Below are positions 7,949-45,693 of a DNA stretch of 46,894 bases, piece by piece. The notes under the pieces were generated by a model. The model was given only the letters and a program-made list of their open reading frames with translations, made no database searches and was not told the origin of the DNA. Source of the DNA: Bryobacteraceae bacterium (lineage in GTDB: Bacteria; Acidobacteriota; Terriglobia; Bryobacterales; Bryobacteraceae); NCBI GenBank assembly GCA_049520795.1, contig JBEKPK010000001.1, positions 1 to 46,894 of the forward strand. The letters are read 5' to 3'. Both the position numbers and the translations under genes were made by a program. Position 1 is the stretch's first letter. Each line of letters opens with the position of its first letter.

Positions 7949-8272
7949 TTGTTTGGGAAGCGCCGATACATTACCAGGGAACACGGGATGGCGATCGCTC
8001 AAGTATTCATTTATCTGCAACTGCTGGACCTCCTGACGACGCTGATCGGCTTGAGATTGGGGGCCTCGGAAGCCAGTCCATTCATTCGCTTACTGATGCA
8101 CGCGGGGCCGGTGGCCGGCGTGGCGTTGTCGAAAGTTTTCGCCCTGGCCCTGGGCGCGCTGTGCGTCTATCGCAAGAAGTATCACTTGATCCGGCTGGCC
8201 AGCTATTGGTACGGGGCCCTGGTGGTGTGGAACCTGATGGTGGCGCTGGCTGCTCCGGGCCGCGCGCTGTAA
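7949..8272 (+). CDS. Small membrane protein, DUF5658-like
   Basis: Three hydrophobic helices. The motif LLDLLTTLIGLRLGASEASPF resembles the DUF5658 pattern. The start could instead be the internal MAIAQV. Confidence 0.5.
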   Translation: MFGKRRYITREHGMAIAQVFIYLQLLDLLTTLIGLRLGASEASPFIRLLMHAGPVAGVALSKVFALALGALCVYRKKYHLIRLASYWYGALVVWNLMVALAAPGRAL

Positions 8273-8385
8273 CGGCCGGACCCGCTACGGGCGCACCAGC
8301 CACGAGCTCGCCGCTAGCAATCCCAGCAGCAAGCCAACTTCGCCCAGCAGGCGCCGCCAATCCGACGCCGGTTTCCGGCAGGCGC

Positions 8386-9852
8386 TCAACTGGCGGGTAT
8401 CAAATCCGGCAGGATCTTCCAATAGGTGCTTCCACATACCGTTCCCGCTTTCAAGAGACGGACGACGATTCGCCCGGATTCGTCCAGATCCACGGCATAA
8501 AGGGGCTCGTCGGCTGGTTTCACCATGTAGGCGCCGGTCTGCAGGTCCCACGACTCCGCGTAGCTCCTCACCACCATGGGATTCGTCGCCACGGCGCGGA
8601 CCCGGAACTGAGCCGTGGAGGGTTCATAGTTGCCGAAACTGTAGCAGCGTCCGATGCAGACCCGATCGATCATGTGGGTTATGGCGTTGACCTGCAAGTC
8701 GGGGTCTTCCACCACGCTCACCACGCGCTGGCCGGGAGCGATGGTGGCTACCGCGCCGCCCATCCGGTCTTCAAACGCATTCAGGGCTCGCTCGTCGCGG
8801 TACAAAAAGGCGAAGAACACCAGGGCTAACGCCAGCATCGCATAGCGTTCGAAGGGCCGCGGACGCGCCGCCGCCAGCAGGGCGCAGACGCATATTCCCA
8901 CTCCCAGCGACATCCGTTCGGCGATGAACGCCAGGGCGTGGAGGAACCCGGGAATGAAGACCGTGGCGGGGAGAATCAATATGCCCCCGGCGCTCATGAT
9001 GAAGAGCTGAAACGGAATGCTGGTGAAGACCCGCGACGCGCCCCAGGCGTGAACCAGGCTCAGGAAAAGCAAGCCCCAGAGGAACAGCAGGCCCACCAGC
9101 GCCACGTAATACTTGGCATCGAAAACCCAAACCTGATCGGCCCCCGTAATTCTGGCGGCCTGGGACGGATACCACCGCGCCGAGAAGGCCATGGTGGTCC
9201 ATACGCGAACCACCGCCATCAACGCCAGCACGCCCATGGTCAAATAGGCCCGCCCCAGCGGAGACCGTTTGCGGGCCAGGGCCGTGTAGGCCAGCAGGCA
9301 CACGCACCAGACCACCGGCAGAGCATGCGCCAGGTAGGCCAGCGCCAGCAGGCCGGCAGCCGCCGCCAGGCGCGCGGGCCTCGGGTTCCAGGCCGCCGCC
9401 ATGGCCCAAAAACACAGGCCCAGGGCCATGTAGAAGTTGAAGAAACCCATGTGGAACACCCACCCGTACGCCAGCATGGCGATGCACGGCATCATGTTCC
9501 ACGGGCGCCTGCCCGCCACGGTGGACATGAAAACGAAAGCGCCCCAGACGAATATCAGGACCGCCAGGCTGACCGCGATGCGCTGCGCTGCCTCGGCCCC
9601 GACAGCCCGGAACAATCCGCTTAACACCAGATCGAAGAGAACGTTGGTGGTCTGCGGCGCTACAATCAGCCCCTGCGCGCGGCCGCTTTCGATCAATTGC
9701 GCCAGCCAGGAGTTGTAAATATGGCTCGAAAGGTCGCCGGCCTGGATGCGCGGCTGCCAATAGCACGGAGCCAGCAGCAGCGCGGAAATCGCCAGGAGAA
9801 TCAGGCCTTCATGCCAGGCGCGCGCGCGCAAGCTGTTCGATGTCGGTGGCAT
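8386..9852 (-). CDS. Polytopic integral membrane protein with a C-terminal soluble domain (function unknown, GT-C-like architecture)
   Basis: 488 aa starting at ATG 9852 (MPPTSNSLRARAW...), which forms an ATGA overlap with the DUF362 stop. There are more than 10 hydrophobic segments and a ~120-aa non-membrane C-terminus. The track's 801-aa ORF is an artificial upstream extension. Confidence 0.75.
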   Translation of the reverse strand: MPPTSNSLRARAWHEGLILLAISALLLAPCYWQPRIQAGDLSSHIYNSWLAQLIESGRAQGLIVAPQTTNVLFDLVLSGLFRAVGAEAAQRIAVSLAVLIFVWGAFVFMSTVAGRRPWNMMPCIAMLAYGWVFHMGFFNFYMALGLCFWAMAAAWNPRPARLAAAAGLLALAYLAHALPVVWCVCLLAYTALARKRSPLGRAYLTMGVLALMAVVRVWTTMAFSARWYPSQAARITGADQVWVFDAKYYVALVGLLFLWGLLFLSLVHAWGASRVFTSIPFQLFIMSAGGILILPATVFIPGFLHALAFIAERMSLGVGICVCALLAAARPRPFERYAMLALALVFFAFLYRDERALNAFEDRMGGAVATIAPGQRVVSVVEDPDLQVNAITHMIDRVCIGRCYSFGNYEPSTAQFRVRAVATNPMVVRSYAESWDLQTGAYMVKPADEPLYAVDLDESGRIVVRLLKAGTVCGSTYWKILPDLIPAS

Positions 9853-10817
9853 CAACTGTTCTCCAAACGGATGCGCCGGAACTCGGGAAGCAGCGCGAAC
9901 GGCATGGTGACATCCTCGATGCGCTCCCCGGTCTGCGTGATTCCATTCTCGGTGATATGCGCCTGCCCGCCAGCCGCCAGGCGCAGGTACTGGATCTTCA
10001 GGGGATCGATTCGCATGATCCGGCAGCAGGTGGCGTCCACCGCCGCCGGGTCGCGCCCGGCGACCAACACGCCCACGCGTTTGGGCGCGCCCTGAATGGG
10101 GCCATTGCCTTCCATACCCACAACTCCGTCCACAATGGCGAATTGGCGTGGAAAAAGCGCATGCAGGTCCGCTATGCACTCGTCGATTCCGGCCCAATGC
10201 AGGGCGTTTTTCGGCCACCCATAGACGCCGCCGGGGACCGTTCCGAACAGGTTCTTCATGGCCAGCGTCGCCCCCACCCAGTGGTGCGTCTTCATCTTCG
10301 GCATGGAAACCAGCAGGTCGGCCGCGAGCGCCGTGCGGGGCAGATACCACTTCTTCATCCCCGAAACCTGTCTTGCCGGCCACACCCGAGCGACGTCGTC
10401 CACGTTCAGATCCACGAACACATCCTCGAAGCGCGGAAGCGTGGTGAAATAGCCGGCGGCATCGGCCAGGTCCAAGGTGTTCCGGCGATGTCCGGGCCCC
10501 TCCGCGACGATCACCCGCGAGGCCCCCAGCGCCAGGAAACTCTCGTACGCCGCGTGCACCAGCAGGGGATGCGTGTTGATCGAGTTCCCCGGTTCGAACT
10601 CCACCAGGTTGGGTTTGAGCGCCACCGTTCGTCCGCGCACGTCCAGCCGTTGGTCTTCGAGCAGCCGCCGCACCGTCGCGTAGATGCGCTGATCGTACTC
10701 GGGCGCGCGCACGATGCTCACCAGGGAGGGCGGCTCGAGCGGCGTCTGGGCGCAGCCCGTGAGCCCGGCGGCCGCCGCCGCGCTCAACCATTCCCGTCTT
10801 GTGAGGCTTCGCTTCAC
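9852..10817 (-). CDS. DUF362 domain protein with a Tat-type signal
   Basis: GTG start at 10817 gives VKRSLTRREWLSAAAAAGLTGC (twin-arginine-like). The DUF362 hallmarks are present: ALKPNLVE, MPKMKTHHWVGATLAMKNLFG and IVDGVVGMEGNGP. Confidence 0.8.
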   Translation of the reverse strand: MKRSLTRREWLSAAAAAGLTGCAQTPLEPPSLVSIVRAPEYDQRIYATVRRLLEDQRLDVRGRTVALKPNLVEFEPGNSINTHPLLVHAAYESFLALGASRVIVAEGPGHRRNTLDLADAAGYFTTLPRFEDVFVDLNVDDVARVWPARQVSGMKKWYLPRTALAADLLVSMPKMKTHHWVGATLAMKNLFGTVPGGVYGWPKNALHWAGIDECIADLHALFPRQFAIVDGVVGMEGNGPIQGAPKRVGVLVAGRDPAAVDATCCRIMRIDPLKIQYLRLAAGGQAHITENGITQTGERIEDVTMPFALLPEFRRIRLENS

Positions 10818-16581: not shown

Positions 16582-18111
16582 TCATTTCCCCGCCCCCGCG
16601 CTCCCTTCTGGCGCGGCCGGCGGAGCCGCCGGAACCGGCACGAGGCGGTACTGCGCCGGGTTCGGCGCGGCGTCGGGCTGCCCTTGCTTCTGCTGCTGCA
16701 GCAGTTGCTCGATCGGTATGGTCGGGACGGGCGGATTCACCGGAACCGGCCCGGTCTTGTCCATCCCGGGCTGGCGCATCGGCGTATCCGTGTTGCTGGG
16801 CATGAACGGCTTAGTGAATTTCAACTCCGGCGCGGCTTGGTCCGCCGGGATCGGCCGCACGATTTCCGGGGTCACGATGACCAGCAGCTCGGTGTTGCTG
16901 CGGCTCACGTTCTTCGATTGGAACAGCTTGCCCAGAATCGGGATGTCCCCGATTCCCGGCACTTTCGAAAGGGTCTCATTGGTTTGGTTGTCGATCAGGC
17001 CCGCGATGACGAAGCTCTGGCCGCTTTCCAGCTCGATTTCGGTCTGCACTCTCCGCGTGGACAGGGCTGGAACGGTAAAGCCCGCGATCGTCACCGAGTG
17101 CGTATAATCGAGCGAGCTCACCTCCGGCTGCACCTGCAGGCGAATGGTCCCGCGCGGCGTGATTATCGGGAGGAAGTTGAGCCGGACGCCGTATTCCCGC
17201 CAGGAAAGCGTCACCACGGCTCCGGTCCCGGCCGCGCCGGGTTGGATCATCGGAAATGGGAACTCGCCGCCCGCCGTGAAGAACGCCTGCTTCCCGTTGA
17301 TGGCCGGCACCGTGGGCTCGGCCAGCATTTCCAGCAGGCTCTTGCTTTCGAGCAACTGCAGAGCCGCCACCAGGTTGATATCTTTGCGGAAGAGAAAGAA
17401 ATTCACCGCGTTAGCCAGGGTGAAAGTCTGGGCCCCATTGGTGCTGACCGGCGAACCCACGCCCGCCGCCGTGGATTGGTTGAACGCCCCGCTGGCCAGG
17501 TCCGCCTCCAGATTCAGGCTGGCCGAACGGTCCACGTTGGCGAACCGCACCCTCACCAGAATCTGCGCCTCGCTCGGCGGGACTTCCACCCGCAGCAGGT
17601 TCACCGGCTTCCCCAAAGTGGACGCCACCGCCATGACGCGCTCGGCGGCCACCACGTCTTTTACGACGCCGCGCACAAAAACCGTGTCGTTGTCGAAGGT
17701 AACGTTAATGTCGTCGTCCGGGTACTCGCGGGCGAGCTGCTGGCGCACCGCTTCCAGTCTTGCCGGGCTGATCCGCACTACCAGGTCGTAGGTCAACCGG
17801 CTGCCACCCCTCTGCCATATGATGAGCGACGTCTCCCCGGGGGCCTTGCCGTTGATGAGCACTTCCTTGGGGCTGTTGGCGACCACGTCAGCCAGGTTGC
17901 CGTCGGCCACCGAAAGCCGCTCGATGGGCAGCGGGCTGTCAATGATCAGGGACTTGCCTACCGTCACGGTCCACTTCTCGACGGGCGCGCTCTGGCCGGA
18001 CGTGTTCTGTTGCTGGGCCGGCGCATCGTCCGCCGCCTCGGCCAGGCCCCAGGGCGCGCACAGCAAGACTGCCGGCGCGAGCATCCATGCGAACTGCCGC
18101 TGTGCGAACAC
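16582..18111 (-). CDS. cpaC: CpaC/RcpA outer-membrane secretin
   Basis: Signal peptide and a secretin C-domain (VPGIGDIPILGKLFQSKNVSRSNTELLVIVTPEIV). Confidence 0.9.
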   Translation of the reverse strand: MFAQRQFAWMLAPAVLLCAPWGLAEAADDAPAQQQNTSGQSAPVEKWTVTVGKSLIIDSPLPIERLSVADGNLADVVANSPKEVLINGKAPGETSLIIWQRGGSRLTYDLVVRISPARLEAVRQQLAREYPDDDINVTFDNDTVFVRGVVKDVVAAERVMAVASTLGKPVNLLRVEVPPSEAQILVRVRFANVDRSASLNLEADLASGAFNQSTAAGVGSPVSTNGAQTFTLANAVNFFLFRKDINLVAALQLLESKSLLEMLAEPTVPAINGKQAFFTAGGEFPFPMIQPGAAGTGAVVTLSWREYGVRLNFLPIITPRGTIRLQVQPEVSSLDYTHSVTIAGFTVPALSTRRVQTEIELESGQSFVIAGLIDNQTNETLSKVPGIGDIPILGKLFQSKNVSRSNTELLVIVTPEIVRPIPADQAAPELKFTKPFMPSNTDTPMRQPGMDKTGPVPVNPPVPTIPIEQLLQQQKQGQPDAAPNPAQYRLVPVPAAPPAAPEGSAGAGK

Positions 18112-29796: not shown

Positions 29797-30321
29797 TTGA
29801 GCCGTATCTTTCTGGCATTCCGCTGTTTCTTCGGCATTCTGTTCCGTGGCGAGTTGTCCGATTCGGCGCTGGGAGATCTGCGGCTGGTGAAACGCGGGCT
29901 GGCCGCGCCGGCCAAGGCGGCCGCTCCTGCCGCACCGCCCGCGCGGACCTCCGACGGGGCCTTGCAGATGCTGGGGATTTTACAGCGCGACTCGCGCCTG
30001 GTGGACTTCCTGATGGAGGATATCGCCGCTTACTCCGACGACCAGGTGGGCGCGGCCGTGCGCGAACTGCACGATCAGTGCCGCGATTCGCTCACCCGCT
30101 ACGTCGCGCTTCAACCGGTGATCGACGGCGTGGAAGGCACATACGCCAAGGCGCCGGCCGATGCCAACGCCGTAAAGTTCGTGGGCAACGTGCCGGCTGC
30201 GCCGCCGCCGGGCGGAACCCTCCGCCACAAGGGGTGGCGCGCGGCCAAGGTGGATTTGCCCGTTTTGTCCCCCAAGCAGGACGCCGCCATCATCGCCCCC
30301 GCGGAAATCGAAATCGAGTGA
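29797..30321 (+). CDS. DUF2760-like protein (Hsp70-paralogue-associated)
   Basis: TTG start 5 nt after GGGGAG. The N-terminus (M)SRIFLAFRCFFGILF and the central LQMLGILQRDSRLVDFLMEDIAAYSDDQVGAAVRELH fit my recollection of DUF2760. Its stop overlaps the GTG start of the next gene (GTGA). Confidence 0.6.
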   Translation: MSRIFLAFRCFFGILFRGELSDSALGDLRLVKRGLAAPAKAAAPAAPPARTSDGALQMLGILQRDSRLVDFLMEDIAAYSDDQVGAAVRELHDQCRDSLTRYVALQPVIDGVEGTYAKAPADANAVKFVGNVPAAPPPGGTLRHKGWRAAKVDLPVLSPKQDAAIIAPAEIEIE

Positions 30322-32147
30322 AAACGTTGCCGCCGAAATACGTGATCGGAATCGATTTGGGCACCACCAATTCCGCGCTGGCCTACGCGGAGGTTGGCGC
30401 CGACGAATTCGCGCCGGCCAGCGTGCAACTGTTGGGCATTCCGCAACTGACCAATCCCGGCGAGGTGCGCGAAGAGGACCTGCTGCCTTCCTTTCTTTAC
30501 CTGCCTGGGCCGGCCGATTTCCCGGCCGGGACCATCGCCCTGCCTTGGGATGAAAAGCGCGCCTTCGTGGCGGGCCGCCTGGCGCAGAAACGCGGGGCGG
30601 AGAACGCCGGCCGCCTGGTCTCCTCCGCCAAGTCCTGGCTTTCGCACTCCGGCGTGGACCGCACCGCCGCGCTGCTGCCTTTCCGCGCCCCCGAAGGGGT
30701 CGACAGGATTTCGCCGGTGGAAGCCAGCCGCCGCTGCCTGGAACATCTGCGGCAAGCCTGGGACGCCAAGATGCCCGACGCGCCCTTCAGCGCGCAGCAG
30801 GCGCTGGTCACCGCGCCGGCATCCTTCGACGCGGTGGCGCGCGAGCTGACGCTCGAGGCCGCCAAACAGGCCGGCTTCGAAAACATCACCCTCCTCGAAG
30901 AGCCGCAGGCCGCCTTCTACGCCTGGATCGAGCGCCACGCCGACTGGCGCGAGCGCGTGAAGCTGGGCGACCTGATCCTGGTTGTCGATATCGGCGGCGG
31001 AACCACCGATTTCACGCTCATCGCGGTGACCGAGACCGATGGCGAACTGGGGCTCAGCCGCGTGGCCGTGGGCGAGCACATCCTGCTCGGCGGCGACAAC
31101 ATCGACCTGGCGCTGGCAGGGGTGGTTTCCGAACGGCTGGCGCAGAAGGGGACGCGCATCGACAGCCGCCAGCTTCAGGCGCTTTGGAACAATTGCCGCG
31201 CGGCCAAGGAGAAACTGCTGGAGCCCGGATCGAAGGCCAAAGAGCAGGCGGTGACGATTCTGGGCAAGGGCTCTGGTTTGGTGGGCGGTACGATCAAGGC
31301 GTCATTGCTGCGCGAAGACATCGAAAGCGTGCTCAGCGAAGGATTCCTGCCGGCCGTGCCCAGCACGGAGATGCCCGCGCGGCAGCGCCGCGGAGGCTTG
31401 CAGGAACTGGGGCTGCCCTACGCCGCCGACCCGGCCATCACGAGGCACATGGCGCGTTTCCTGCGCCAGCAGGCCGCCACCGCCGAGCACGGGGCCGTCC
31501 GCCGCGGTCCCAGCGGGCTGGCGTGTCCCACGCACGTGCTGTTCAACGGAGGTGTGCTAAATGCCGCGCTGGTGCGGGAGCGAATTCTGGGCTCCCTGAA
31601 CTCGTGGCTTGCCGAAGAGGAAATGGCGCCCGTGCGCGAGTTGGCGGGCGAGGACCTCATGCACGCGGTGGCACGCGGGGCCGCTTACTACGGCCTGGCC
31701 CGCCTGGGACGCGGCGTGCGCATTCGCGGCGGCGTGCCGCGCACGTACTACGTGGGCATCGAAAGCTCCATGCCGGCGGTTCCCGGCTTCCCTGCTCCGC
31801 TCAAAGCGCTCACGGTGGTCCCATTCGGCATGGAAGAAGGAACCGAAGCGCGCATCCCCGGCCGCGAATTCGGGTTGGTGGTGGGCGAGCCGGCCGAGTT
31901 CCGCTTCTTCCATTCCGCCACCCGCAAGAACGACCAGCCGGGCGATCTCATCGAAGATATCGGCGACGAACTGCAAGAGCTATCTCCCATGGAAGCGCGC
32001 TTCGAAGGCGGCGCGGAAGCGTCGGAAGTGGTTCCGGTATCCTTCGAAACCGTGGTCACCGAAACCGGCATGTTACAGCTCTGGTGCGTGGCCCGCGACG
32101 GGCGAAGGTGGAAGCTGGAGTTCAACGTGAGAGAGCGGGTGACATAG
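30318..32147 (+). CDS. Non-canonical Hsp70-family ATPase, paralogue A (609 aa)
   Basis: Actin-fold/Hsp70 motifs are present: IGIDLGTTNSALAY (phosphate 1), VVDIGGGTTDFTLI (phosphate 2), LLGGDNIDLALA and VLFNGGVLNAA. It has a divergent beta-rich C-domain and lacks the EEVD and lid features of DnaK. Confidence 0.85.
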   Translation: MKTLPPKYVIGIDLGTTNSALAYAEVGADEFAPASVQLLGIPQLTNPGEVREEDLLPSFLYLPGPADFPAGTIALPWDEKRAFVAGRLAQKRGAENAGRLVSSAKSWLSHSGVDRTAALLPFRAPEGVDRISPVEASRRCLEHLRQAWDAKMPDAPFSAQQALVTAPASFDAVARELTLEAAKQAGFENITLLEEPQAAFYAWIERHADWRERVKLGDLILVVDIGGGTTDFTLIAVTETDGELGLSRVAVGEHILLGGDNIDLALAGVVSERLAQKGTRIDSRQLQALWNNCRAAKEKLLEPGSKAKEQAVTILGKGSGLVGGTIKASLLREDIESVLSEGFLPAVPSTEMPARQRRGGLQELGLPYAADPAITRHMARFLRQQAATAEHGAVRRGPSGLACPTHVLFNGGVLNAALVRERILGSLNSWLAEEEMAPVRELAGEDLMHAVARGAAYYGLARLGRGVRIRGGVPRTYYVGIESSMPAVPGFPAPLKALTVVPFGMEEGTEARIPGREFGLVVGEPAEFRFFHSATRKNDQPGDLIEDIGDELQELSPMEARFEGGAEASEVVPVSFETVVTETGMLQLWCVARDGRRWKLEFNVRERVT

Positions 32148-32233
32148 CCATCTTCGCGTGGAGGACGCTTCAGCGGGGACGACTCGCCGCGAGCCGCAAT
32201 AATTGTCGGAAACTGGCGTCTGAACCGCAGCCG

Positions 32234-32280
32234 TAGAGCGGGCTTCCAGCCTGCCATGCCGGCGCCCTTGCCGGCATTCT
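32234..32280. repeat. REP-B 47-nt intergenic repeat, copy 3
   Basis: TAGAGCGGGCTTCCAGCCTGCCATGCCGGCGCCCTTGCCGGCATTCT, about 85 nt after the stop of Hsp70 paralogue A. Confidence 0.8.
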
Positions 32281-32345
32281 CCCCGGCCAAGCGAAGTGCG
32301 AGGCGTGTTGGGCTATCGGGGATATACTTGTTTGCGGAGCCACTC

Positions 32346-33263
32346 ATGATGAGACGCAATCTGCTGTTGGCGGGGACGCTTGGTTTCACGCTGCTCCATG
32401 GCCAGACACTGCCCCCCGAGCAGAAGCAGAAAGTGGACGGCGCGGTTCCCGCCAAGGCGCCGGTCAAGCCGAAGAGACCTCGCCGCATGTTGGTGAGTAA
32501 CCTCGCCATGCGCGACGGCCATCTCTGGCGCGGCAGCTCCGACGCCACCATTCCGGCAGCTAACTACGCCATCGGGCAGATGGGCAAACGCACCGGCGCT
32601 TACGAGGCGGTCTTCAGCGACGATGTCGAGATGTTCCGCCCCGGCCGGATCAAACAGTTCGACGCCATCTGCTTTCTGAATACGGTAGGCGTGCTGTTTG
32701 ACGACCCGGAGCTAAAGAAATCGCTGCTCGCCTTCATCGCCAACGGCAAGGGGTTCGTGGGGATTCACGATGCCATCGCAACCTTCGTGCAGTATCCCAA
32801 GTACGACCAGTGGCCGCCATTCGGCCAGATGCTGGGCGCCACCGAGAATGGCGGACATCCCTGGGACGGCGAGACGATGACGGTAAAGGTGGAGGACCCC
32901 AAGAGCCCGCTCGATGCCGTGTTTCACGGCCAGGAATTCCAGATTGCCGACCAGGCTTTCCAGTTTCAGGAGCCGGCCCTGCGCGACCATCTCCACGTGC
33001 TCCTCAGCATCGATGTGGAGAAGACCGGCTTCTCTCCCAGCCGCCGCATCCTGCCGGTGCGCATGGCGGACAAGGATTTTCCCGTGACTTGGATCCGCGC
33101 CTATGGGAAGGGCCGCGTGTTCTACAGCTCTCTGGGGCATGGCGCGCCGGTCTTCTGGAACGCTCCGCTGCTCGAACACTTCCTGGCCGGCATCCAATAC
33201 GCCCTGGGCGATCTGAAAGCGGATAGCCGGCCCAGCGGAATGCTGCCCGCGGCGAAGAAGTAA
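32346..33263 (+). CDS. ThuA-like (trehalose-utilisation domain) secreted protein
   Basis: Signal peptide MMRRNLLLAGTLGFTLLHG and ThuA-type motifs GFVGIHDA and FPVTWIRAYGKGRVFYSSLGH. Confidence 0.75.
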   Translation: MMRRNLLLAGTLGFTLLHGQTLPPEQKQKVDGAVPAKAPVKPKRPRRMLVSNLAMRDGHLWRGSSDATIPAANYAIGQMGKRTGAYEAVFSDDVEMFRPGRIKQFDAICFLNTVGVLFDDPELKKSLLAFIANGKGFVGIHDAIATFVQYPKYDQWPPFGQMLGATENGGHPWDGETMTVKVEDPKSPLDAVFHGQEFQIADQAFQFQEPALRDHLHVLLSIDVEKTGFSPSRRILPVRMADKDFPVTWIRAYGKGRVFYSSLGHGAPVFWNAPLLEHFLAGIQYALGDLKADSRPSGMLPAAKK

Positions 33264-33325
33264 GACGGCGGGATGCGAAGACCTTGACCGTGGCGATTCC
33301 GGCAGCGGGTAGCTAACGCTTTACA

Positions 33326-33526
33326 ATGGAACTGGTGAAGGTCCGCGATCTGCTGCGGCTCGTCGAGGCGGATGGATGGCGCCATGTCCGAACGACTGGA
33401 AGCCATAGGCACTATAAGCACGCGCAGAAACCGCACGTCGTGACGATCCCCGGACACCCCGGCGATGACGTACCGACCGGCACGCTGAAGTCGGTTCTAA
33501 GGGCCGCTGGATTGGAGAAGAAGTAA
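33326..33526 (+). CDS. hicA: HicA-family type II toxin
   Basis: 66 aa; ADGWRHVRTTGSHRHYKH...VVTIPGHPGDDVPTGTLKSVLRAAGL matches the HicA pattern. Confidence 0.9.
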   Translation: MELVKVRDLLRLVEADGWRHVRTTGSHRHYKHAQKPHVVTIPGHPGDDVPTGTLKSVLRAAGLEKK

Positions 33527-33750
33527 TGAGCCAGAAATACGCGGTGATTTTCGAGCGGGCAGCGAGCAATTGGGCCGCGTACGTTCCCGATCTACCCGGC
33601 TGCATCACGACCGGCAGGACCTTAGAGGAGACGGAGCGCAATATCCGAGAGGCGATTCAAGGGCACTTGCAGACCCTCCGCGAATTCGGCGATCCCATTC
33701 CCCACCCGACCAGCCTCGCCAGGGAAATTGAAATCCCGCCGGCCGCGTAA
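33526..33750 (+). CDS. hicB: HicB-family antitoxin (short form, no appended DNA-binding domain)
   Basis: YAVIFERAASNWAAYVPDLPGCITTGRTLEETERNIREAIQGHL matches the HicB/UPF0150 pattern. Its ATG overlaps the hicA TAA by 1 nt. Confidence 0.85.
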   Translation: MSQKYAVIFERAASNWAAYVPDLPGCITTGRTLEETERNIREAIQGHLQTLREFGDPIPHPTSLAREIEIPPAA

Positions 33751-33931
33751 GGCCTGACGGCCTCGGCGGAAGACGGCAATGCCATTTGCCGACCTGCCGA
33801 GGAAGCGGCCAGGTTCGCGCGTGGGGTACCCACGCGGACGCCCAGCGTGCCGCTGATGCGCCGGGAAATTTCGTCCCGTTTTCCTCTGCTCGTAGAAGTA
33901 AACCGGTCGAAAAGGGGCCCGAGGTCCCATC

Positions 33932-34126
33932 CTAGCTCTGGTGTTTCGCGATCAACTCCCGGACCTTGGGCAACAGGTCGCGGGGAACATTCATGACGGT
34001 CTCGGCGGACTCAACGCCGGCTTCGTCCTCCGCCAAGGCTTCATCGTCGGTCTGCTCTCCGTAATGAGCGAGCACCCGGCGTACTCTGCCCTCATCCCAT
34101 GCTTCCGGGAACTTGTTTTGGCTCAT
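33932..34126 (-). CDS. Putative antitoxin of the upstream small toxin
   Basis: 64-aa acidic protein (…WDEGRVRRVLAHYGEQTDDEALAEDEAG…) that forms an ATGA overlap with the toxin-like gene. Confidence 0.5.
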   Translation of the reverse strand: MSQNKFPEAWDEGRVRRVLAHYGEQTDDEALAEDEAGVESAETVMNVPRDLLPKVRELIAKHQS

Positions 34127-34407
34127 TGGCGTTTCTTCTTTCTGCGCCGGCGATACGCCACCAAGGGCTTTCCGGTCAGATCGTAGGCCGTAATCACGAA
34201 CACGGAGTCCAGTTCAGCGTCCGGGACGTAGATGACACGCAAGTATCTGCCAGACGCTGTCCGTCCCAACGCAATTCTGGAACCTTCGCGGGCCGCCCGA
34301 TCCTCTCCCGGTTTCTCCAAGACATCAATGACCTCGGCCTCGTCCACCCCATGGTTACGAATATGGGGCAACCCGGTTGCAGGATCGACATAGAATCGGG
34401 CGTTCAA
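34123..34407 (-). CDS. Small toxin-like protein (BrnT/DUF497- or DUF4258-like)
   Basis: 94 aa; HIRNHGVDEAEVIDVL...GRTASGRYLRVIYVPDAELDSVFVITAYDL fits those small RNase-toxin patterns. The toxin-first gene order matches brnTA. Confidence 0.5.
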   Translation of the reverse strand: MNARFYVDPATGLPHIRNHGVDEAEVIDVLEKPGEDRAAREGSRIALGRTASGRYLRVIYVPDAELDSVFVITAYDLTGKPLVAYRRRRKKKRQ

Positions 34408-34487
34408 GCTTCTTCGACTTCAATTCTAACCCCGAATGACAAGCGCGCGGGCGACCCGCAGCCCCGCCATCCCTTAAGCTAAAAGTG

Positions 34488-37130
34488 ATGAAGATCGGCA
34501 TCGACCTCGGCACTACCAATTCCGCGCTGGCTTACATTGACGAATGCGAGGCGGAGGATCGCGACTTTCCGCCGGTACATATCTTTGAGACGCCGCAGCT
34601 TGTGGCCGCCGGGCGCATCGAAGCGCGGCGCACGCTGCCTTCGTTTTTGTTTCTGGAGGAGGGGCAGCCGGTCGGCGTCTACGCGCGTGAGCAGGGGGCG
34701 CTCGTGCCGACGCGCCTGGTGCATTCGGCGAAATCGTGGCTCTCCAACCCCGACGTGGACCGCACCGCCAAGATCCTGCCCTGGGATTCGCCGGAGAGCG
34801 GGCGCGCGCTTTCTCCGGTGGAAGTTTCGGCGCGCATCATCGGTAAATTCCGCGAGGAGTGGGACCGTGCGCACGCCGAACCCCTGGCGGAGCAGGATAT
34901 CGTGCTCACCGCGCCTGCCTCGTTCGACGAAGAAGCGCGCGAGCTCACCGTGGAGGCCGCGCGGCAGGCCGGCATCGAGAAGCTGACCCTGCTCGAAGAG
35001 CCCGCCGCGGCCTTCTATTCGTGGATCGCCAACAACCTGGCGCAGTCGCGCAAGAAGCTCTTCGACGGCCAGGTGGTTCTGATCTGCGACGTGGGCGGCG
35101 GCACCAGCGACTTCAGCCTGATCCGCGTTTCGCGCGACGGCGACCTGGTCAACTTCACCCGTACCGCCGTGGGCAAGCACCTCCTGCTGGGTGGGGACAA
35201 TCTGGATCTCACCCTGGCCTGGCTGGCGGAGAGCAAACTGGGCTCTCAGCTTTCCATACGCCAGCGCAGCGGCTTGCGGCGGCAGTGCTCGGCGGCCAAG
35301 GAGAAGTTGCTGAACGACGCCAACCTGAAGTCGGTGGAAATCACCGTGCTCGGCGCGGGATCGGCGCTGATCGGCCGGTCGCTCAAGACCGAGATCCTGC
35401 GCGAGGAAGCGCTGGAACTCGCGCTCGAAGGCTTCCTGCCGTTCACCGAGCGCGGCGAGGCGCCCAAAGAGGAGAAGCGCAGCCTGTTCCGGGAGTTGGG
35501 CCTGCCCTACGTCAGCGACGCCGCCATCACGCGCCACCTGAACGCGTTCCTGGAACCCACCGGCCAGACGCCGGACGCCATTTTGTTCAACGGCGGCTTC
35601 TTCATTCCGGAGATCCTGCAAGAGCGGGTGGCCGAGGTGGTGGGGCGCTGGTACGGGCGGCGGCCCGAGGTTTTCGAAAACACGGAGCTCGATCTGGCGG
35701 TGGCGCGCGGGGCCGCTTATTATTCCTACGTGCGTTCCACTGGCAGCGGCGTGCTGGTGCGCGGCGGTTTGCCGCGCACCTACTACATCGGCCTGGGCGA
35801 GCCGCGCGACGGCAAGTTTCCGGCCGTGTGCCTGGTCCCGCGCGGCGCCGAAGAGGGATCCACCATCGAGATCGATAACGACGCGCTGCAACTGGTGGCC
35901 AACCGGCCGGTTGGGTTCCGGCTGTATAGCTCGCTGACGCGCAGCGAAGACAAGCTCGGCGACGTGCTCGAGTTTCGCGCCGAAGATGCGGATCTGCACA
36001 TGCACGCGCCCCTCAACGCGGTGATCCGCTTCGGCAAGAAGGCCGAGGAGCGGCTAATCCCAGTGAAACTCGGGGCGCGGCTGACGGAGATCGGCACGCT
36101 CGAGACATGGTGCGAATCGAAAATCAGCGACAACCGCTGGCGGCTGCGGTTCGAGCTGCGCAAGAAGGCCGCCGAACAGCCGGCGGAACGCAAAGCGGCG
36201 GCGGTGGTGAGCGAGCAGGCGCTCAAATCGTCGCTGGAGCTGATCCAGGCCGTGTTCGCGCCCAACGCCAAATCGCCCATCGCGCCGGAAGAGGTCCCCG
36301 CGAAGCTGGAACAAACCATGGGGTTGGGAAGAAACTCCTGGCCGCTGGCCACCATTCGCCATCTGGCGGACGCTTTCCTGGCGGTAGCCGACGGCCGCAA
36401 GAAGAGCCCTGCATATGAAATCCGCTGGTTCAACCTGTGCGGCTTTTGCCTGCGGCCCGGCTTCGGGTACCCCGGCGACGATTTCCGCATAGAACAAACC
36501 CGCCGCATCTACGTGGGTGGTATCACCCACGGCAACCAGGTGCAATGCGAAATCGACTGGTGGATATTCTGGGGGCGCGTGGCGGGCGGGATGAACCGCA
36601 ACCAGCAGGCCGACGTCTACCAGCGGCTCTCCGGGTTCCTGCTGCCGCGCGGCGCCAGGAAGCCGCAGCGCATCAACCCGTCGCTGTTGCGCGAAATGTG
36701 GCGCGCCGCCGCCAGCCTGGAGTTGCTGCCCATCGGCGTGAAAACGGAATTGGGGGACGCTCTTATCCGGCGCGTGAAGGCCGGCGATTTCAAGGAAAGC
36801 GAGATCTGGTGCCTGTCGCGTCTGGGCGCCCGCAAGCTGTTCTATGGTCCCATGAACCTGGTGGTCCCGCCGGCTACGGCCACCCGTTGGGCCGAAGCGC
36901 TGCTCAACGTGGCCGGCGCCGGCGAAGCGCTGGCCGCCATCGCGCGCCGCACCGAAGACCCTACGCGCGATCTACCGGCGGCCACGCTCGAGAATGTGCG
37001 CCGCAAGCTAGAATCCACGCCGCACGCGGAGCGCCTGCTGGCCGTGTTCGAAGGCGACGAAGCAGACGACCGGGCGCTGGGGCGGATCTTCGGCGAGGAG
37101 CTGCCGTCGGGGCTGGTGCTGATGGAGTAA
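34488..37130 (+). CDS. Non-canonical Hsp70-family ATPase, paralogue B (880 aa) with a ~320-aa C-terminal extension
   Basis: Hsp70 motifs IGIDLGTTNSALAY, ICDVGGGTSDFSLI, LLGGDNLDLTLA and ILFNGGFFIPE. It shares the SAKSWLS...VDRTA segment and the beta-rich domain with paralogue A. Residues ~560-880 are a helical, W/R-rich domain of unknown family. Confidence 0.85.
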   Translation: MKIGIDLGTTNSALAYIDECEAEDRDFPPVHIFETPQLVAAGRIEARRTLPSFLFLEEGQPVGVYAREQGALVPTRLVHSAKSWLSNPDVDRTAKILPWDSPESGRALSPVEVSARIIGKFREEWDRAHAEPLAEQDIVLTAPASFDEEARELTVEAARQAGIEKLTLLEEPAAAFYSWIANNLAQSRKKLFDGQVVLICDVGGGTSDFSLIRVSRDGDLVNFTRTAVGKHLLLGGDNLDLTLAWLAESKLGSQLSIRQRSGLRRQCSAAKEKLLNDANLKSVEITVLGAGSALIGRSLKTEILREEALELALEGFLPFTERGEAPKEEKRSLFRELGLPYVSDAAITRHLNAFLEPTGQTPDAILFNGGFFIPEILQERVAEVVGRWYGRRPEVFENTELDLAVARGAAYYSYVRSTGSGVLVRGGLPRTYYIGLGEPRDGKFPAVCLVPRGAEEGSTIEIDNDALQLVANRPVGFRLYSSLTRSEDKLGDVLEFRAEDADLHMHAPLNAVIRFGKKAEERLIPVKLGARLTEIGTLETWCESKISDNRWRLRFELRKKAAEQPAERKAAAVVSEQALKSSLELIQAVFAPNAKSPIAPEEVPAKLEQTMGLGRNSWPLATIRHLADAFLAVADGRKKSPAYEIRWFNLCGFCLRPGFGYPGDDFRIEQTRRIYVGGITHGNQVQCEIDWWIFWGRVAGGMNRNQQADVYQRLSGFLLPRGARKPQRINPSLLREMWRAAASLELLPIGVKTELGDALIRRVKAGDFKESEIWCLSRLGARKLFYGPMNLVVPPATATRWAEALLNVAGAGEALAAIARRTEDPTRDLPAATLENVRRKLESTPHAERLLAVFEGDEADDRALGRIFGEELPSGLVLME

Positions 37131-37260: not shown

Positions 37261-37364
37261 CATTGCCCGAGGAAGACGCGGAGGCGCTGGTCGATGCCGG
37301 CGGTGGCACGCCGGTTCGCTGGGTCCCCGGCGAAGGTTGGGTGGAGGGGAATCCTCAGAGGTGG

Positions 37365-37612
37365 CGTATCCAACGGTAGGCTTCTTTGCGGTCGCCGACG
37401 AACTCGAAGTCAACCAGGCGCTCGTGGCTGTAGACAGAGAAAACGAGGCGGTAATCGCGACCGAGACGGACGGAGAAGCGGTTCGCCCGCCCCTGGAGCT
37501 TCTTGCCCTGCTAAGGGTTCGATAACACATCGAGGATGGCTTGGACGGCCTTTTGCCGGATCTGGGAACGGAGGGCGAGCAGGTCCTTTTCGAAGGAACT
37601 GGCGTAGCTACC
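37365..37612 (-). pseudogene. Decayed RelE/ParE-family toxin (in-frame TAG, no usable start codon)
   Basis: The minus-strand frame reads ...GSYASSFEKDLLALRSQIRQKAVQAILDVLSNP*QGKKLQGRANRFSVRLGRDYRLVFSVYSHERLVDFEFVGDRKEAYRWIRHL*. The TAG is at 37513-37511. No in-frame ATG, GTG or TTG precedes the conserved N-terminus. Confidence 0.8.
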
Positions 37613-37793
37613 GAAGCCGAGCGAGAAGATCCGGGAGCGGATGGCGTCGATCTTTCAGCCTGGCGTCGCAGAGGGCATCGAGGGCTTGATCCTCGGTCGC
37701 TACGGCGGTCTTGAGGGCGCGGCGGTAAACCTTGTCGACGGAGAGAGGGGCGCTGCGGCGAGCAGACGCCGGGGTAGCGACGCGGGCTTTCAT
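37608..37793 (-). CDS. Antitoxin-like protein upstream of the decayed RelE
   Basis: 61 aa from ATG 37793 (MKARVATPASARRSAPLSVDKVYRRALKTAVATEDQALDAL...). Its stop overlaps the toxin remnant. The C-terminus may itself be altered. Confidence 0.55.
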   Translation of the reverse strand: MKARVATPASARRSAPLSVDKVYRRALKTAVATEDQALDALCDARLKDRRHPLPDLLARLR

Positions 37794-37835
37794 GACCAGA
37801 TTCATTCTATCACCCGTCACCCTGGAAGCTGCCGA

Positions 37836-38277: not shown

Positions 38278-38835
38278 CTACCTCGAAGATTCTGATCCCC
38301 AGCCCCGCAGGAACCGCCAGGTGTAGTGCACGCCACTCCAAACCGTCAGGGCCGCGCACGGCCAGATGAGCAACCGTGAGACGGCGTTGGGAAACGCGCC
38401 GGGGATGGCGTCGCGCGTCATCCAGGCCCCCGCCGTCAACATCTGGACGAACGTCGAAGCCTTGCCCCAAACGCTGGGCGGGAACTTCCGGGCGGGGGTG
38501 AGCCACAGCATGAGGATGGCGCCCAGCAGGATATAGAAATCGCGGGCGAAGATGATTATCACCAGCCAGAGGGGCACGATGCGAGCTACGGCCAGCGCCA
38601 GGAATGCGCCGCTGAGCAGGCACTTGTCGGCGATGGGGTCTAGATAGGCGCCGGCTTGGGTAGCGCTCCCGAGGCGGCGGGCGGCGGCGCCATCGAGAAC
38701 ATCGGTCATCGAGGCGGTGAAGAACAGCGCCAGGGCCAGCATGTGGCGGCCGGCCAGCACGGAGGCGGCGATGAAAGGCAGAAGCGCCAGGCGCAGCAGG
38801 GTTATCAGGTTGGGGAGGTTTATCCAGCGCGGCAT
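38278..38835 (-). CDS. pgsA: CDP-alcohol phosphatidyltransferase (PgsA-like)
   Basis: Contains the D-x2-D-G-x2-A-R-x8-G-x3-D-x3-D motif (DVLDGAAARRLGSATQAGAYLDPIADK) and multiple TM helices. Confidence 0.8.
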   Translation of the reverse strand: MPRWINLPNLITLLRLALLPFIAASVLAGRHMLALALFFTASMTDVLDGAAARRLGSATQAGAYLDPIADKCLLSGAFLALAVARIVPLWLVIIIFARDFYILLGAILMLWLTPARKFPPSVWGKASTFVQMLTAGAWMTRDAIPGAFPNAVSRLLIWPCAALTVWSGVHYTWRFLRGWGSESSR

Positions 38836-44014: not shown

Positions 44015-44722
44015 GTGAAGCGGGTTGGTACAATGGGCCAGGCTGTATTCCCTTCAATGGCCACGCAATTCTCTAGCGCAAAGGGCGAACGGACGGGGTA
44101 TCACCCGCCAGGGTCCGTCTGGGAAGGAGAAGATGCGGAACTTCTCGAGCAGATGCTGGCATTCTATCCGCGGAAGCGCCCGAAGCGGGTTCTAGATGCC
44201 ACCGTGAACGGCGGACGGTTCTGGCGGGGAAGCAAGAGGCCCGTCTATGGGCTCGACATTGACATTGCGCACCGGCCGCAGATCGTGGCCGACAACACGC
44301 AGATGCCCTTCAGGAACGCGGCGTTCGATGTCGTGGTTTACGACCCTCCGCACATTCCGAATCAAGGCAGGGACCACCAGAAGGACTTCAACGTGCGCTT
44401 CGGGCTTGTGCTCCGTTCGCCCAAAGAGAACCAGTACACATTTACCCACACGTACCCGCCGTTTGTGGCGGAGGCCTACCGTGTTTTGAAACCGGAGGGT
44501 CTCCTACTCTGCAAGATCACGGACTATGTGCACCACCACCGCTACAACTGGGCGCACGTGGACTTCATAGACGCCGCAAGGAAAGCTGGTTTCTGCGCCT
44601 GCGACTGCATCGTCAAGACCCGAAAAGGTCCGATCATCGACCCGAGGTGGAAGACGGCCCACCACACGCGGCGGCAGCACTGCTATTGGCTGGTCTTCCG
44701 AAAGTCCAAGAAATGCGAATGA
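44015..44722 (+). CDS. Putative DNA amino-methyltransferase (N6-A or N4-C) with a DPPH catalytic motif
   Basis: Rossmann motif order I (VLDATVNGG), II (VYGLDID) and IV (VVVYDPPH), then EAYRVLKPEGLLL. It is translationally coupled to a PD-(D/E)xK protein. G+C is visibly lower than in flanking genes. Confidence 0.6.
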   Translation: MKRVGTMGQAVFPSMATQFSSAKGERTGYHPPGSVWEGEDAELLEQMLAFYPRKRPKRVLDATVNGGRFWRGSKRPVYGLDIDIAHRPQIVADNTQMPFRNAAFDVVVYDPPHIPNQGRDHQKDFNVRFGLVLRSPKENQYTFTHTYPPFVAEAYRVLKPEGLLLCKITDYVHHHRYNWAHVDFIDAARKAGFCACDCIVKTRKGPIIDPRWKTAHHTRRQHCYWLVFRKSKKCE

Positions 44723-45693
44723 GGCGCGGCCCAATCAAGGCTCCGGGTTCGAGCCGCCAGATCGCCTTTCATCAACTGCTGGTTGCAGCCCGGAAGAGCT
44801 TGCTGGTGGATGCACTCAAGGAGGCTCTGCGGGGCGCCGACCCCAACACCATAAAGAAACAACTCTCGACCTACGTGCCAACCGACGTTCAGAAGCTTCT
44901 CGCGGCCAGCGGGATCCGCGACGAACATGTATTCCCCGTGCCTGCTTTGCTGGAGTCGAAACCAACGCTGGTCGGATACTACCGTCTTCTCCTGGGCGTT
45001 CCGCAGAAGACCTTCTACAAGGGCGCCACGGGCATGGGGCAATTCAAGAGCATGGAGACCCGCGGGCTGCTGAAGCCGGCAAAGCGGCCCGACCTGGAAG
45101 GGTTTTGCGCGGCGATGGCCCGCAGTTTGGCGGAACTGGTGCGTCAGATGGCCCCGCCAATCTCGAAGCGAGATGTGCTCGAACTGCCTTTGCTGACGCT
45201 TGGCTCACAGCTTCAGGGCGGCAACAACAACGCGATTGGCAAAAGGGCGACCGTTGAAGTGTTCTTGGCCGTGTCGGAGTTGGTCAAGGGCCACGTCATA
45301 TCCCAGGACGAACGGAGAATCAGCATCCAGAATGCCGCCGGACGTAGAGTCACCATCGCGTTGGCCTCCGATCCCGATATCCGAATTCAAGAAGACTTTG
45401 AGGGACAACCGCGGAACAAGGTGGCGATTGAGATCAAAGGGGGCACGGACATCAGCAACGCCCATAACCGGGCGGGCGAGGCCGAGAAGTCTCACCAAAA
45501 GGCGAAGAAAGACGGGTTTCGCGACTATTGGACGATTATCTCCAAGGCGGGCCTGAGCGTCGAAAAGCTGAGATCGGAATCGCCAACCACGAACGACTGG
45601 TTCGATGTGGCCCAGGTGTTGGGCAGGGAAGGCGAAGACTGGAACCAGTTCAAGAGTCGATTCGCCGATGCCGCGGGCATCCCGCTCAAATGA
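44719..45693 (+). CDS. Putative type II restriction endonuclease (PD-(D/E)xK)
   Basis: Candidate catalytic core SDPDIRIQ...x19...VAIEIKGGTD. Its ATG forms an ATGA overlap with the methyltransferase stop (alternative ATG at 44713). I cannot confirm the family by eye; it is possibly XcyI-like. Confidence 0.55.
   Translation: MRRGPIKAPGSSRQIAFHQLLVAARKSLLVDALKEALRGADPNTIKKQLSTYVPTDVQKLLAASGIRDEHVFPVPALLESKPTLVGYYRLLLGVPQKTFYKGATGMGQFKSMETRGLLKPAKRPDLEGFCAAMARSLAELVRQMAPPISKRDVLELPLLTLGSQLQGGNNNAIGKRATVEVFLAVSELVKGHVISQDERRISIQNAAGRRVTIALASDPDIRIQEDFEGQPRNKVAIEIKGGTDISNAHNRAGEAEKSHQKAKKDGFRDYWTIISKAGLSVEKLRSESPTTNDWFDVAQVLGREGEDWNQFKSRFADAAGIPLK

Follow-up and report, generated by a model that had tools for sequence, protein, structure and literature searches.

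Paired Hsp70 systems operate in eukaryotes, where Hsp70 partners with Hsp110, BiP with Grp170/Lhs1, and Ssb with the atypical Ssz1 in RAC, and where Tim44 tethers mitochondrial Hsp70. In bacteria, HscA and HscC are specialized Hsp70 paralogs that are not of the heat-shock type, and CoCoNuT type IV restriction systems encode CnuD, in which an Hsp70-like nucleotide-binding domain (NBD) and substrate-binding domain (SBD) are followed by HEAT-like helical repeats (PMC11090510). A 2026 review describes the bacterial DnaK derivatives as unexplored and proposes Hsp110-like co-chaperone roles for them (PMC13580251). Here, we analyzed a 46,894-nucleotide stretch of DNA from a Bryobacteraceae bacterium (GenBank assembly GCA_049520795.1, contig JBEKPK010000001.1, positions 1 to 46,894 of the forward strand; hereafter, the window) that carries a module of three genes on the + strand: a DUF2760 protein (174 aa, 29797-30321; Pfam PF10816), an Hsp70 paralog that we call A (609 aa, 30318-32147), and a second, longer Hsp70 paralog, B (880 aa, 34488-37130), which ends in a DUF3731 domain (36162-37130; Pfam PF12531). 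The module is a self-contained, vertically inherited, chromosomal three-gene unit that is conserved across phyla, and its sequences indicate a dedicated, non-canonical Hsp70 system that is neither DnaK nor HscA.

The window thus adds one member to a trio of families (PF10816, PF00012 and PF12531) that is catalogued and functionally uncharacterized. Elsewhere, the same families are found in the same order, on one strand and with the same coupling of DUF2760 to A, and the window differs in the 2.3 kb insert that stands between its A and B. A first-pass annotation, made from the sequence without database searches, had proposed the module as an undescribed system. This needs qualification, since the families are listed both as Pfam DUFs and under the PGAP names "DUF2760 domain-containing protein" and "Hsp70 family protein", but the literature that we searched held no mention of DUF2760, DUF3731, PF10816 or PF12531, and no published function. 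The name "DnaK-related protein" occurs in the literature in gene lists only. One lead comes from Vibrio cholerae, whose "DnaK-related protein" operon VC1375-VC1373 is probably the same trio, judging by annotation names and the operon structure given in papers; this operon is reported to be repressed in biofilms (PMC9201469), and the VC1375 promoter to be activated by HapR (PMC10328515). We also considered the Myxococcus StkA locus as an equivalent and rejected it, as StkA is followed there by the SCP2-like StkB and the PhaE-like StkC, not by DUF2760 or DUF3731 proteins (PMC4319316).

Compared with the eukaryotic pairs, the trio would share the presence of two Hsp70 paralogs, one of which is longer at its C-terminus, together with a dedicated tether and a specialized task (PMC13580251). 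Homology is limited to the NBD, however, and the extension of B is modeled as an armadillo-like solenoid, whereas that of the eukaryotic partners is an extended helical lid; the eukaryotic systems, moreover, still use J-proteins. HscA and HscC resemble A and B in being specialized paralogs, but the trio has no hscB/isc or J-protein neighbors, carries a VRIRGG linker, and has no SBD or lid that is recognizable by sequence. CnuD is similar in its domain order, with its repeats being comparable to DUF3731 by description only, and differs in having degenerate Walker-A-like motifs (PMC11090510), where the phosphate-1 motif DLGTT is invariant in the A and B families. CnuD further sits with an McrB-type NxD GTPase, McrC/DUF2357 and HEPN proteins (PMC11090510), and partners of this type were found neither among the window genes scanned (27.5-46.4 kb) nor among the 25 most recurrent flanking families.

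The placement of A and B rests on their NBDs. The two proteins are 44% identical over ~560 residues, and their alignment recovered all of the Hsp70 motifs and extra shared segments listed by the first-pass annotation, namely IGIDLGTTNSALAY, D(I/V)GGGT(T/S)DF, LLGGDN(I/L)DL, LFNGG, SAKSWLS..VDRTA and RW(K/R)L.F..R. The Pfam HSP70 match spans only part of the NBD in both A (E 1.4e-17) and B (E 1.6e-22); in B it falls in the N-terminal 558 aa (34488-36161, +), which comprise the NBD and an A-type domain of unassigned fold. Against the NCBIfam models of DnaK and HscA, A and B scored 60-97 bits, with cut-offs of 620-1019. For canonical DnaK (TIGR02350/NF001413), the scores were 62-63 bits for A and 77-78 bits for B (cut-offs 648-822), and for HscA (TIGR01991/NF003520), which gave the best-scoring models for both proteins, they were 81-97 bits (cut-offs 620-708), again far under the threshold. 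The non-canonical status that had been proposed for both paralogs is thereby upheld. Weak matches to MreB/Mbl in Pfam and NCBIfam lie at or under the gathering threshold and cover the shared fold core only, and the context of K70, the DxGGGTxD and LLGGDNxD motifs, and the best model matches to HscA and DnaK together assign both proteins to the Hsp70 branch.

Both ATPases keep every catalytic residue. In an alignment of 48 A-family sequences to Escherichia coli DnaK (reference sequence checked against PDB 2KHO), the equivalents of D8, K70, E171, D194, T199 and D201 were invariant, as were the motifs DLGTT, SAKSW, EEP, DxGGGTxD, GGDNxD and NGG in 39 diverse homologs of B. The positions through which DnaK contacts DnaJ, R167/N170/T173, are T/E/Q in the same 48 A-family sequences, and the interdomain linker reads V-R-I-R-G-G where DnaK has VLLLD. 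Beyond its intact Hsp70-type NBD, A consists of a C-terminal domain of ~150 aa and has no helical lid; a profile of this post-NBD domain yielded zero matches to PDB sequences.

At the nucleotide level, the DUF2760 gene begins with a TTG at 29797, 7 nt downstream of GGGGAG, and its stop codon overlaps the GTG start of A by 4 nt (GTGA, in the context GAGTGA; ...GAGTGAAAACG), so that the overlap proposed earlier was confirmed on reading the junction. B starts with an ATG at 34488, and its length of 880 aa agrees with the gene call in relatives. The order and strand of the trio are kept in the window, but A and B are held 2.3 kb apart by an insert that is discussed below.

To describe the distribution of the module, we used the DUF3731 region and the B protein itself. 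An exhaustive HMMER search of 1.84 billion representatives with the DUF3731 region recovered 1,478 clusters (50% identity); all full-length proteins in the 150 matches listed carried the domain at their C-terminus, and they measured 880-1,130 aa. A pattern scan of 185,579 species genomes (one genome per species) placed B in at least 584 of them, from about ten phyla, with 584 of the 600 matches listed being confirmed; carriers include Binatia, Desulfobacterota, Chloroflexota, Planctomycetota, Nitrospirota, Myxococcota, Fibrobacterota, Rhodothermales and Proteobacteria, and the annotation of a Comamonadaceae replicon likewise lists the trio. B is 85-99% identical in over 120 protein clusters. 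Where enough upstream DNA was available (63 loci), DUF2760, A and B followed each other on one strand in 48-49 loci from many phyla, in line with the statement in the first-pass annotation that DUF2760 genes are often annotated next to Hsp70-family paralogs; DUF2760 preceded B with no A in two further loci (L039 and L043). The three genes are contiguous in the relatives L001 and L088, whose B proteins are 86-87% identical to that of the window. Clustering of all flanking ORFs revealed no conserved fourth gene, with no family present in more than eight of 80 loci and those that came closest being generic ABC ATPases and kinases. Ratios of nonsynonymous to synonymous substitution (dN/dS) were 0.07-0.17 for DUF2760, 0.06-0.11 for A and 0.06-0.17 over all three genes, which are thus under strong purifying selection even when separated.

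As a separate observation on L001 (the 86% relative), gene A lies there over two frames (8168-10004; ORFs 8174-9901 and 8811-10004), so that it is either a pseudogene with a frameshift or misassembled; the fragmentation seen in L091 resembles long-read errors.

The first-pass annotation had treated the 7.3 kb span as one contiguous module, which our comparison with relatives does not bear out, as positions 32148-34461 are unrelated inserted cargo. By blastn, the window is colinear with the relative L002 (B 97% identical) up to 32147, the stop of A, and again from 34462, just before B. Between these points, the window holds 2.3 kb encoding a ThuA-like protein (32256-33263, +), HicA (33326-33526, +), HicB (33526-33750, +), a BrnA-like protein (33932-34126, -) and BrnT/DUF4258 (34123-34407, -), as identified by Pfam, whereas L002 holds 5.0 kb with KaiC, two KaiB and a PAS histidine kinase. 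The same KaiC-KaiB-KaiB-PAS kinase cassette lies between A and B in L003, and a 99% relative (L090) shares the insert of the window. The B gene of a 93% relative comes after a Phd-PIN pair and other genes, and no A lies within 9 kb of it. On a contig whose DUF2760 is 93% identical, the Kai cassette stands behind DUF2760 and A, and the ~8 kb of the locus that remain contain no B. The corresponding coordinates are 32148-34461 in the window, 4994-9974 in L002, 6001-8916 in L086 and 12841-17382 in L091.

A second variable spot (37355-37805, -) lies just 3' of B and outside the module. It contains a decayed ParE/RelE-like toxin gene with an in-frame stop (~37355-37612, -; …SNP*QGKK…) and its apparently intact antitoxin gene (~37629-37805, -), both located by tblastn with the L002 pair, which is intact; L002 also carries a PemK gene downstream of B that the window lacks. 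Because the cargo differs among relatives of 93-99% identity, both the junction of A and B and the region 3' of B are hotspots of insertion in this Bryobacteraceae clade, where toxin-antitoxin modules accumulate, and in this lineage a ThuA gene and two toxin-antitoxin pairs inserted between A and B split the operon. Scans for promoters and terminators around the split gave results no better than those with shuffled sequences. In L091, an AbiEii-family gene stands directly upstream of DUF2760 (8793-9644, -), a further piece of mobile conflict cargo around the module.

The C-terminal extension of B, which the first-pass annotation could not assign to any family, is a clear match to Pfam PF12531 (DUF3731, "DNA-K related protein") over residues 641-879 (239.8 bits, with a cut-off of 25; E 5.4e-71). 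An AlphaFold (AF2) model built from 86 sequences of 28-89% identity reached a mean pLDDT of 91.4 and a pTM of 0.88, and consists of 16 helices. In a Foldseek search of the PDB, the best, albeit weak, matches were designed armadillo-repeat proteins and importin-alpha (E 7e-3, TM ~0.46), suggesting that DUF3731 is an armadillo/HEAT-like solenoid that has no specific solved relative; a DUF3731 profile against the PDB gave nothing significant, and a Foldseek search of viral structures gave nothing meaningful. The domain has a pI of 9.0, as compared to 5.3 for the remainder of B. On the model, DUF3731 is therefore described as a predicted basic, all-alpha, armadillo-like solenoid of the type that binds peptides or proteins. 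Its invariant motifs are E.RW.NL.GFCLRPG.G...D..R, EWWILWRRVAGGL and W.LGR.GAR, and B terminates in a tail that reads FGEELPSGLVL in the window (37095-37127) and FG(D/E)SLPxGLxL across phyla.

For the DUF2760 protein, the earlier family assignment stands (PF10816, 136.9 bits with a cut-off of 25, E 4.1e-40, profile positions 2-124 of 124), but the domain was misplaced: what had been called a DUF2760-like N-terminus, the RIFLAFRCFFGILF helix, falls outside the domain, which occupies residues 52-172. The window protein consists of a hydrophobic or amphipathic helix (residues 3-17), an Ala/Pro-rich linker, the domain, and an APAEIEIE tail (30295-30318). In a cross-phylum alignment, the family is strongly conserved (LQREGRLxDFLxEDI..Y.DAQIGAAVR.IH.GC ... 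LRH.GW), and its C-terminus is almost invariant as APAEVEI(E). A profile search of the PDB returned nothing significant. A transmembrane (TM)-like segment, defined as a 19-aa Kyte-Doolittle (KD) window with a mean of at least 1.6, was found in 37 of the 44 ORFs of relatives that could be scored (from 55 hmmsearch rows), where it precedes the domain by a consistent 50-100 residues; the N-termini were taken from ORFs and may include residues before the true start. The DUF2760 protein is thus a probable membrane tether of the module, and the conserved tails of DUF2760 and B could serve as docking peptides.

The trio has no conserved neighbor that is a J-protein, GrpE or an effector. When the six-frame translation of the window was searched by phmmer with the J-domains of E. 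coli DnaJ, CbpA and HscB and with GrpE, nothing was returned at E<=10, in agreement with the absence of both from the first reading of the window. Of 85 loci surveyed out to 8 kb from the module, only two contained a J-domain ORF (L023, 1280-1723, ~2 kb upstream of DUF2760; L032, 15646-16416), and none contained GrpE.

We favor, with moderate confidence, the reading that DUF2760, the lidless A and the long B with its DUF3731 domain form a widespread chromosomal operon, split by insertion in this lineage, that works as a membrane two-Hsp70 machine. In such a machine, the DUF2760 protein would tether the system to the inner membrane on its cytoplasmic side, and A and B would act as a pair, by analogy with Hsp70 and Hsp110/Grp170 or with Ssb and Ssz1. 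The operon pairs two paralogs of which B is the longer, and for this reason B would take the Hsp110/Grp170-like part, as nucleotide-exchange partner and/or as client receptor through its solenoid. Pairing of A with B would replace DnaJ and GrpE, and cycles of ATP hydrolysis might be used to bind, hold or remodel one specific client as opposed to the general proteome. The client may be a protein or an acidic extended peptide, for example the invariant APAEVEI tail of DUF2760, which the basic solenoid may dock.

We regard as possible, but doubtful, the further claim that the trio is a self-sufficient two-Hsp70 machine without J-protein or GrpE, with DUF2760 as membrane anchor, B as both exchange factor and client receptor, and a solenoid that may dock either the APAEVEI tail or B's own LPxGL tail. 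If true, the trio would be a prokaryotic counterpart of the paired Hsp70s of eukaryotes, or would embody their precursor logic, and two Hsp70 paralogs that cooperate without the usual co-chaperones would, if shown, bear on the origin of Hsp110-type partners. The trio is in any case a comparatively tractable system: it occurs in hundreds of species in about ten phyla, its ATPases are intact, neither a J-protein nor GrpE accompanies it, and a membrane tether is probable. Its solenoid is confidently modeled and has invariant Arg/Trp/Gly motifs, and two conserved C-terminal tails invite binding tests.

Several results weigh against the favored reading of a membrane two-Hsp70 machine. B stands with neither A nor DUF2760 nearby in about 12 of the 63 loci; lone-B loci from Chloroflexota, Isosphaeraceae and some Deltaproteobacteria (L030, L033, L037, L040, L045, L046, L061, L069-L071 and L079) adjoin housekeeping genes (LeuRS, Mfd, FtsH, ComEC). 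In some close relatives B also lies more than 8 kb from A, and both arrangements suggest that B may act alone or with canonical DnaK. Furthermore, when the post-NBD domain was compared with the DnaK SBD by hhalign, the alignment was limited to the final 13 residues of the NBD; because the domain has no sequence similarity to the DnaK SBD, client binding of the Hsp70 type is an assumption. As for the tether, the N-terminus of DUF2760 in the lineage of the window is a short amphipathic segment (KD 1.5) with no clear TM helix, the ORF-based N-termini of the relatives carry the caveat given above, and an AlphaFold model of DUF2760 from an alignment of 72-94% identity had a pLDDT of 47, too low for a fold search.

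The lone-B loci also fit a different reading, in which A and/or B are auxiliary co-chaperones, that is, exchange factors or disaggregation enhancers for the housekeeping DnaK, with DUF2760 as a regulator. We consider this rather unlikely, yet the most viable of the alternatives. Apart from the ~12 of 63 loci in which B stands alone beside LeuRS, Mfd or FtsH, it agrees with the co-chaperone role that has been proposed for NBD-containing DnaK derivatives (PMC13580251) and with the reduced sporulation and oxidative resistance, without lethality, of Myxococcus strains deleted for non-canonical hsp70 genes (PMC8265645), which can be set beside A and B by description only. The tight coupling of DUF2760, A and B, with 4-nt overlaps and in most phyla, argues instead for a self-contained unit, and none of the 85 loci showed linkage to dnaK, dnaJ or grpE. 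Both paralogs also retain full catalytic sets, where a pure exchange factor could tolerate decay.

Alternatively, A and B might belong to an actin-fold membrane or cytoskeletal system that polymerizes, or that remodels membranes or envelope lipid synthesis, and that does not chaperone proteins at all. The weak MreB/Mbl matches, the probable membrane anchor in DUF2760, the basic solenoid, and a post-NBD domain that is not detectably an Hsp70 SBD would all fit, as would a number of neighbors: a CDP-alcohol phosphatidyltransferase in the window (38278-38835, -), a PEMT/ICMT methyltransferase overlapping the stop of B in L001 (12649-13206), LpxR in L005 (1459-2487), and, by raw counts, lipid A and PlsC-type acyltransferases, ketoacyl synthases and DUF401 membrane proteins that recur in the flanks. 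Nevertheless, the MreB scores lie at or below the gathering threshold and reflect the fold core only, while A and B carry Hsp70-specific motifs and find their best matches in HscA and DnaK, which makes this proposal improbable.

The first-pass annotation had suggested that the module may be a stress, conflict or defense-type sensor-effector. On a defense reading, the two Hsp70-like ATPases would sense infection or stress and trigger a response, and the nearby toxin-antitoxin and restriction-modification genes would mark a defense island. The conflict genes on which the first-pass annotation drew are real: HicA/HicB, DUF4258/BrnT, the decayed ParE/RelE-like toxin and an XcyI restriction-modification cassette all lie within 8 kb of the module. 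To these can be added the AbiEii gene beside DUF2760 in one relative, the likeness to CnuD of the CoCoNuT type IV restriction systems (PMC11090510), and, in PADLOC-DB v2, a weak match of A and B to a single candidate model, PDC-M61B, which spans ~95 aa of the shared fold at E 1e-5. However, the toxin-antitoxin genes sit in an insert that varies among relatives of 93-99% identity and is missing at 86-87% identity, and DUF2760 has no PADLOC-DB v2 match. The 102 flanking ORFs from ~60 genomes are housekeeping or metabolic, with PADLOC matches being scattered generic domains and with recurrent Pfam families comprising the beta-lactamase fold, DUF401, ketoacyl synthase, RecA, dihydroorotate dehydrogenase, lipid A acyltransferase, ABC transporters and sigma-54 activators. 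Neither a conserved fourth gene or effector nor a nuclease, protease or pore domain is present in the module, and the ATPase motifs are intact, unlike those of CnuD, with no McrB/McrC among the genes scanned at 27.5-46.4 kb. DUF3731 had 0 matches in 50,697 INPHARED phage records and 2.9 million IMG/VR contigs, and occurred in 10 of 72,556 plasmid records, most of which are replicons of 0.9-3.5 Mb. The slow evolution of the module (B 85-99% identical in more than 120 clusters, dN/dS about 0.1) points in the same direction. As the conflict genes are strain-variable cargo and not conserved partners, the defense reading is not supported and is the least probable of all, so that what survives of the original proposal is the dedicated, non-canonical and co-localized Hsp70 trio. 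Toxin-antitoxin genes beside an unusual ATPase do not by themselves make a defense system; here, they are the cargo of insertion hotspots.

Two further features of the window lie outside the module. The XcyI-family restriction endonuclease and its methyltransferase are annotated at 44015-45693 (+; Pfam E 2e-89 for XcyI), where a weak match to an N6/N4 DNA methylase overlaps the XcyI gene, and in the 99% relative L090 the XcyI gene lies at an equal distance from B. Further upstream, positions 16582-18111 (-) encode a Tad/type II-like secretin, which carries a BON domain besides its pilus-formation N-terminal domain and is unrelated to the module.

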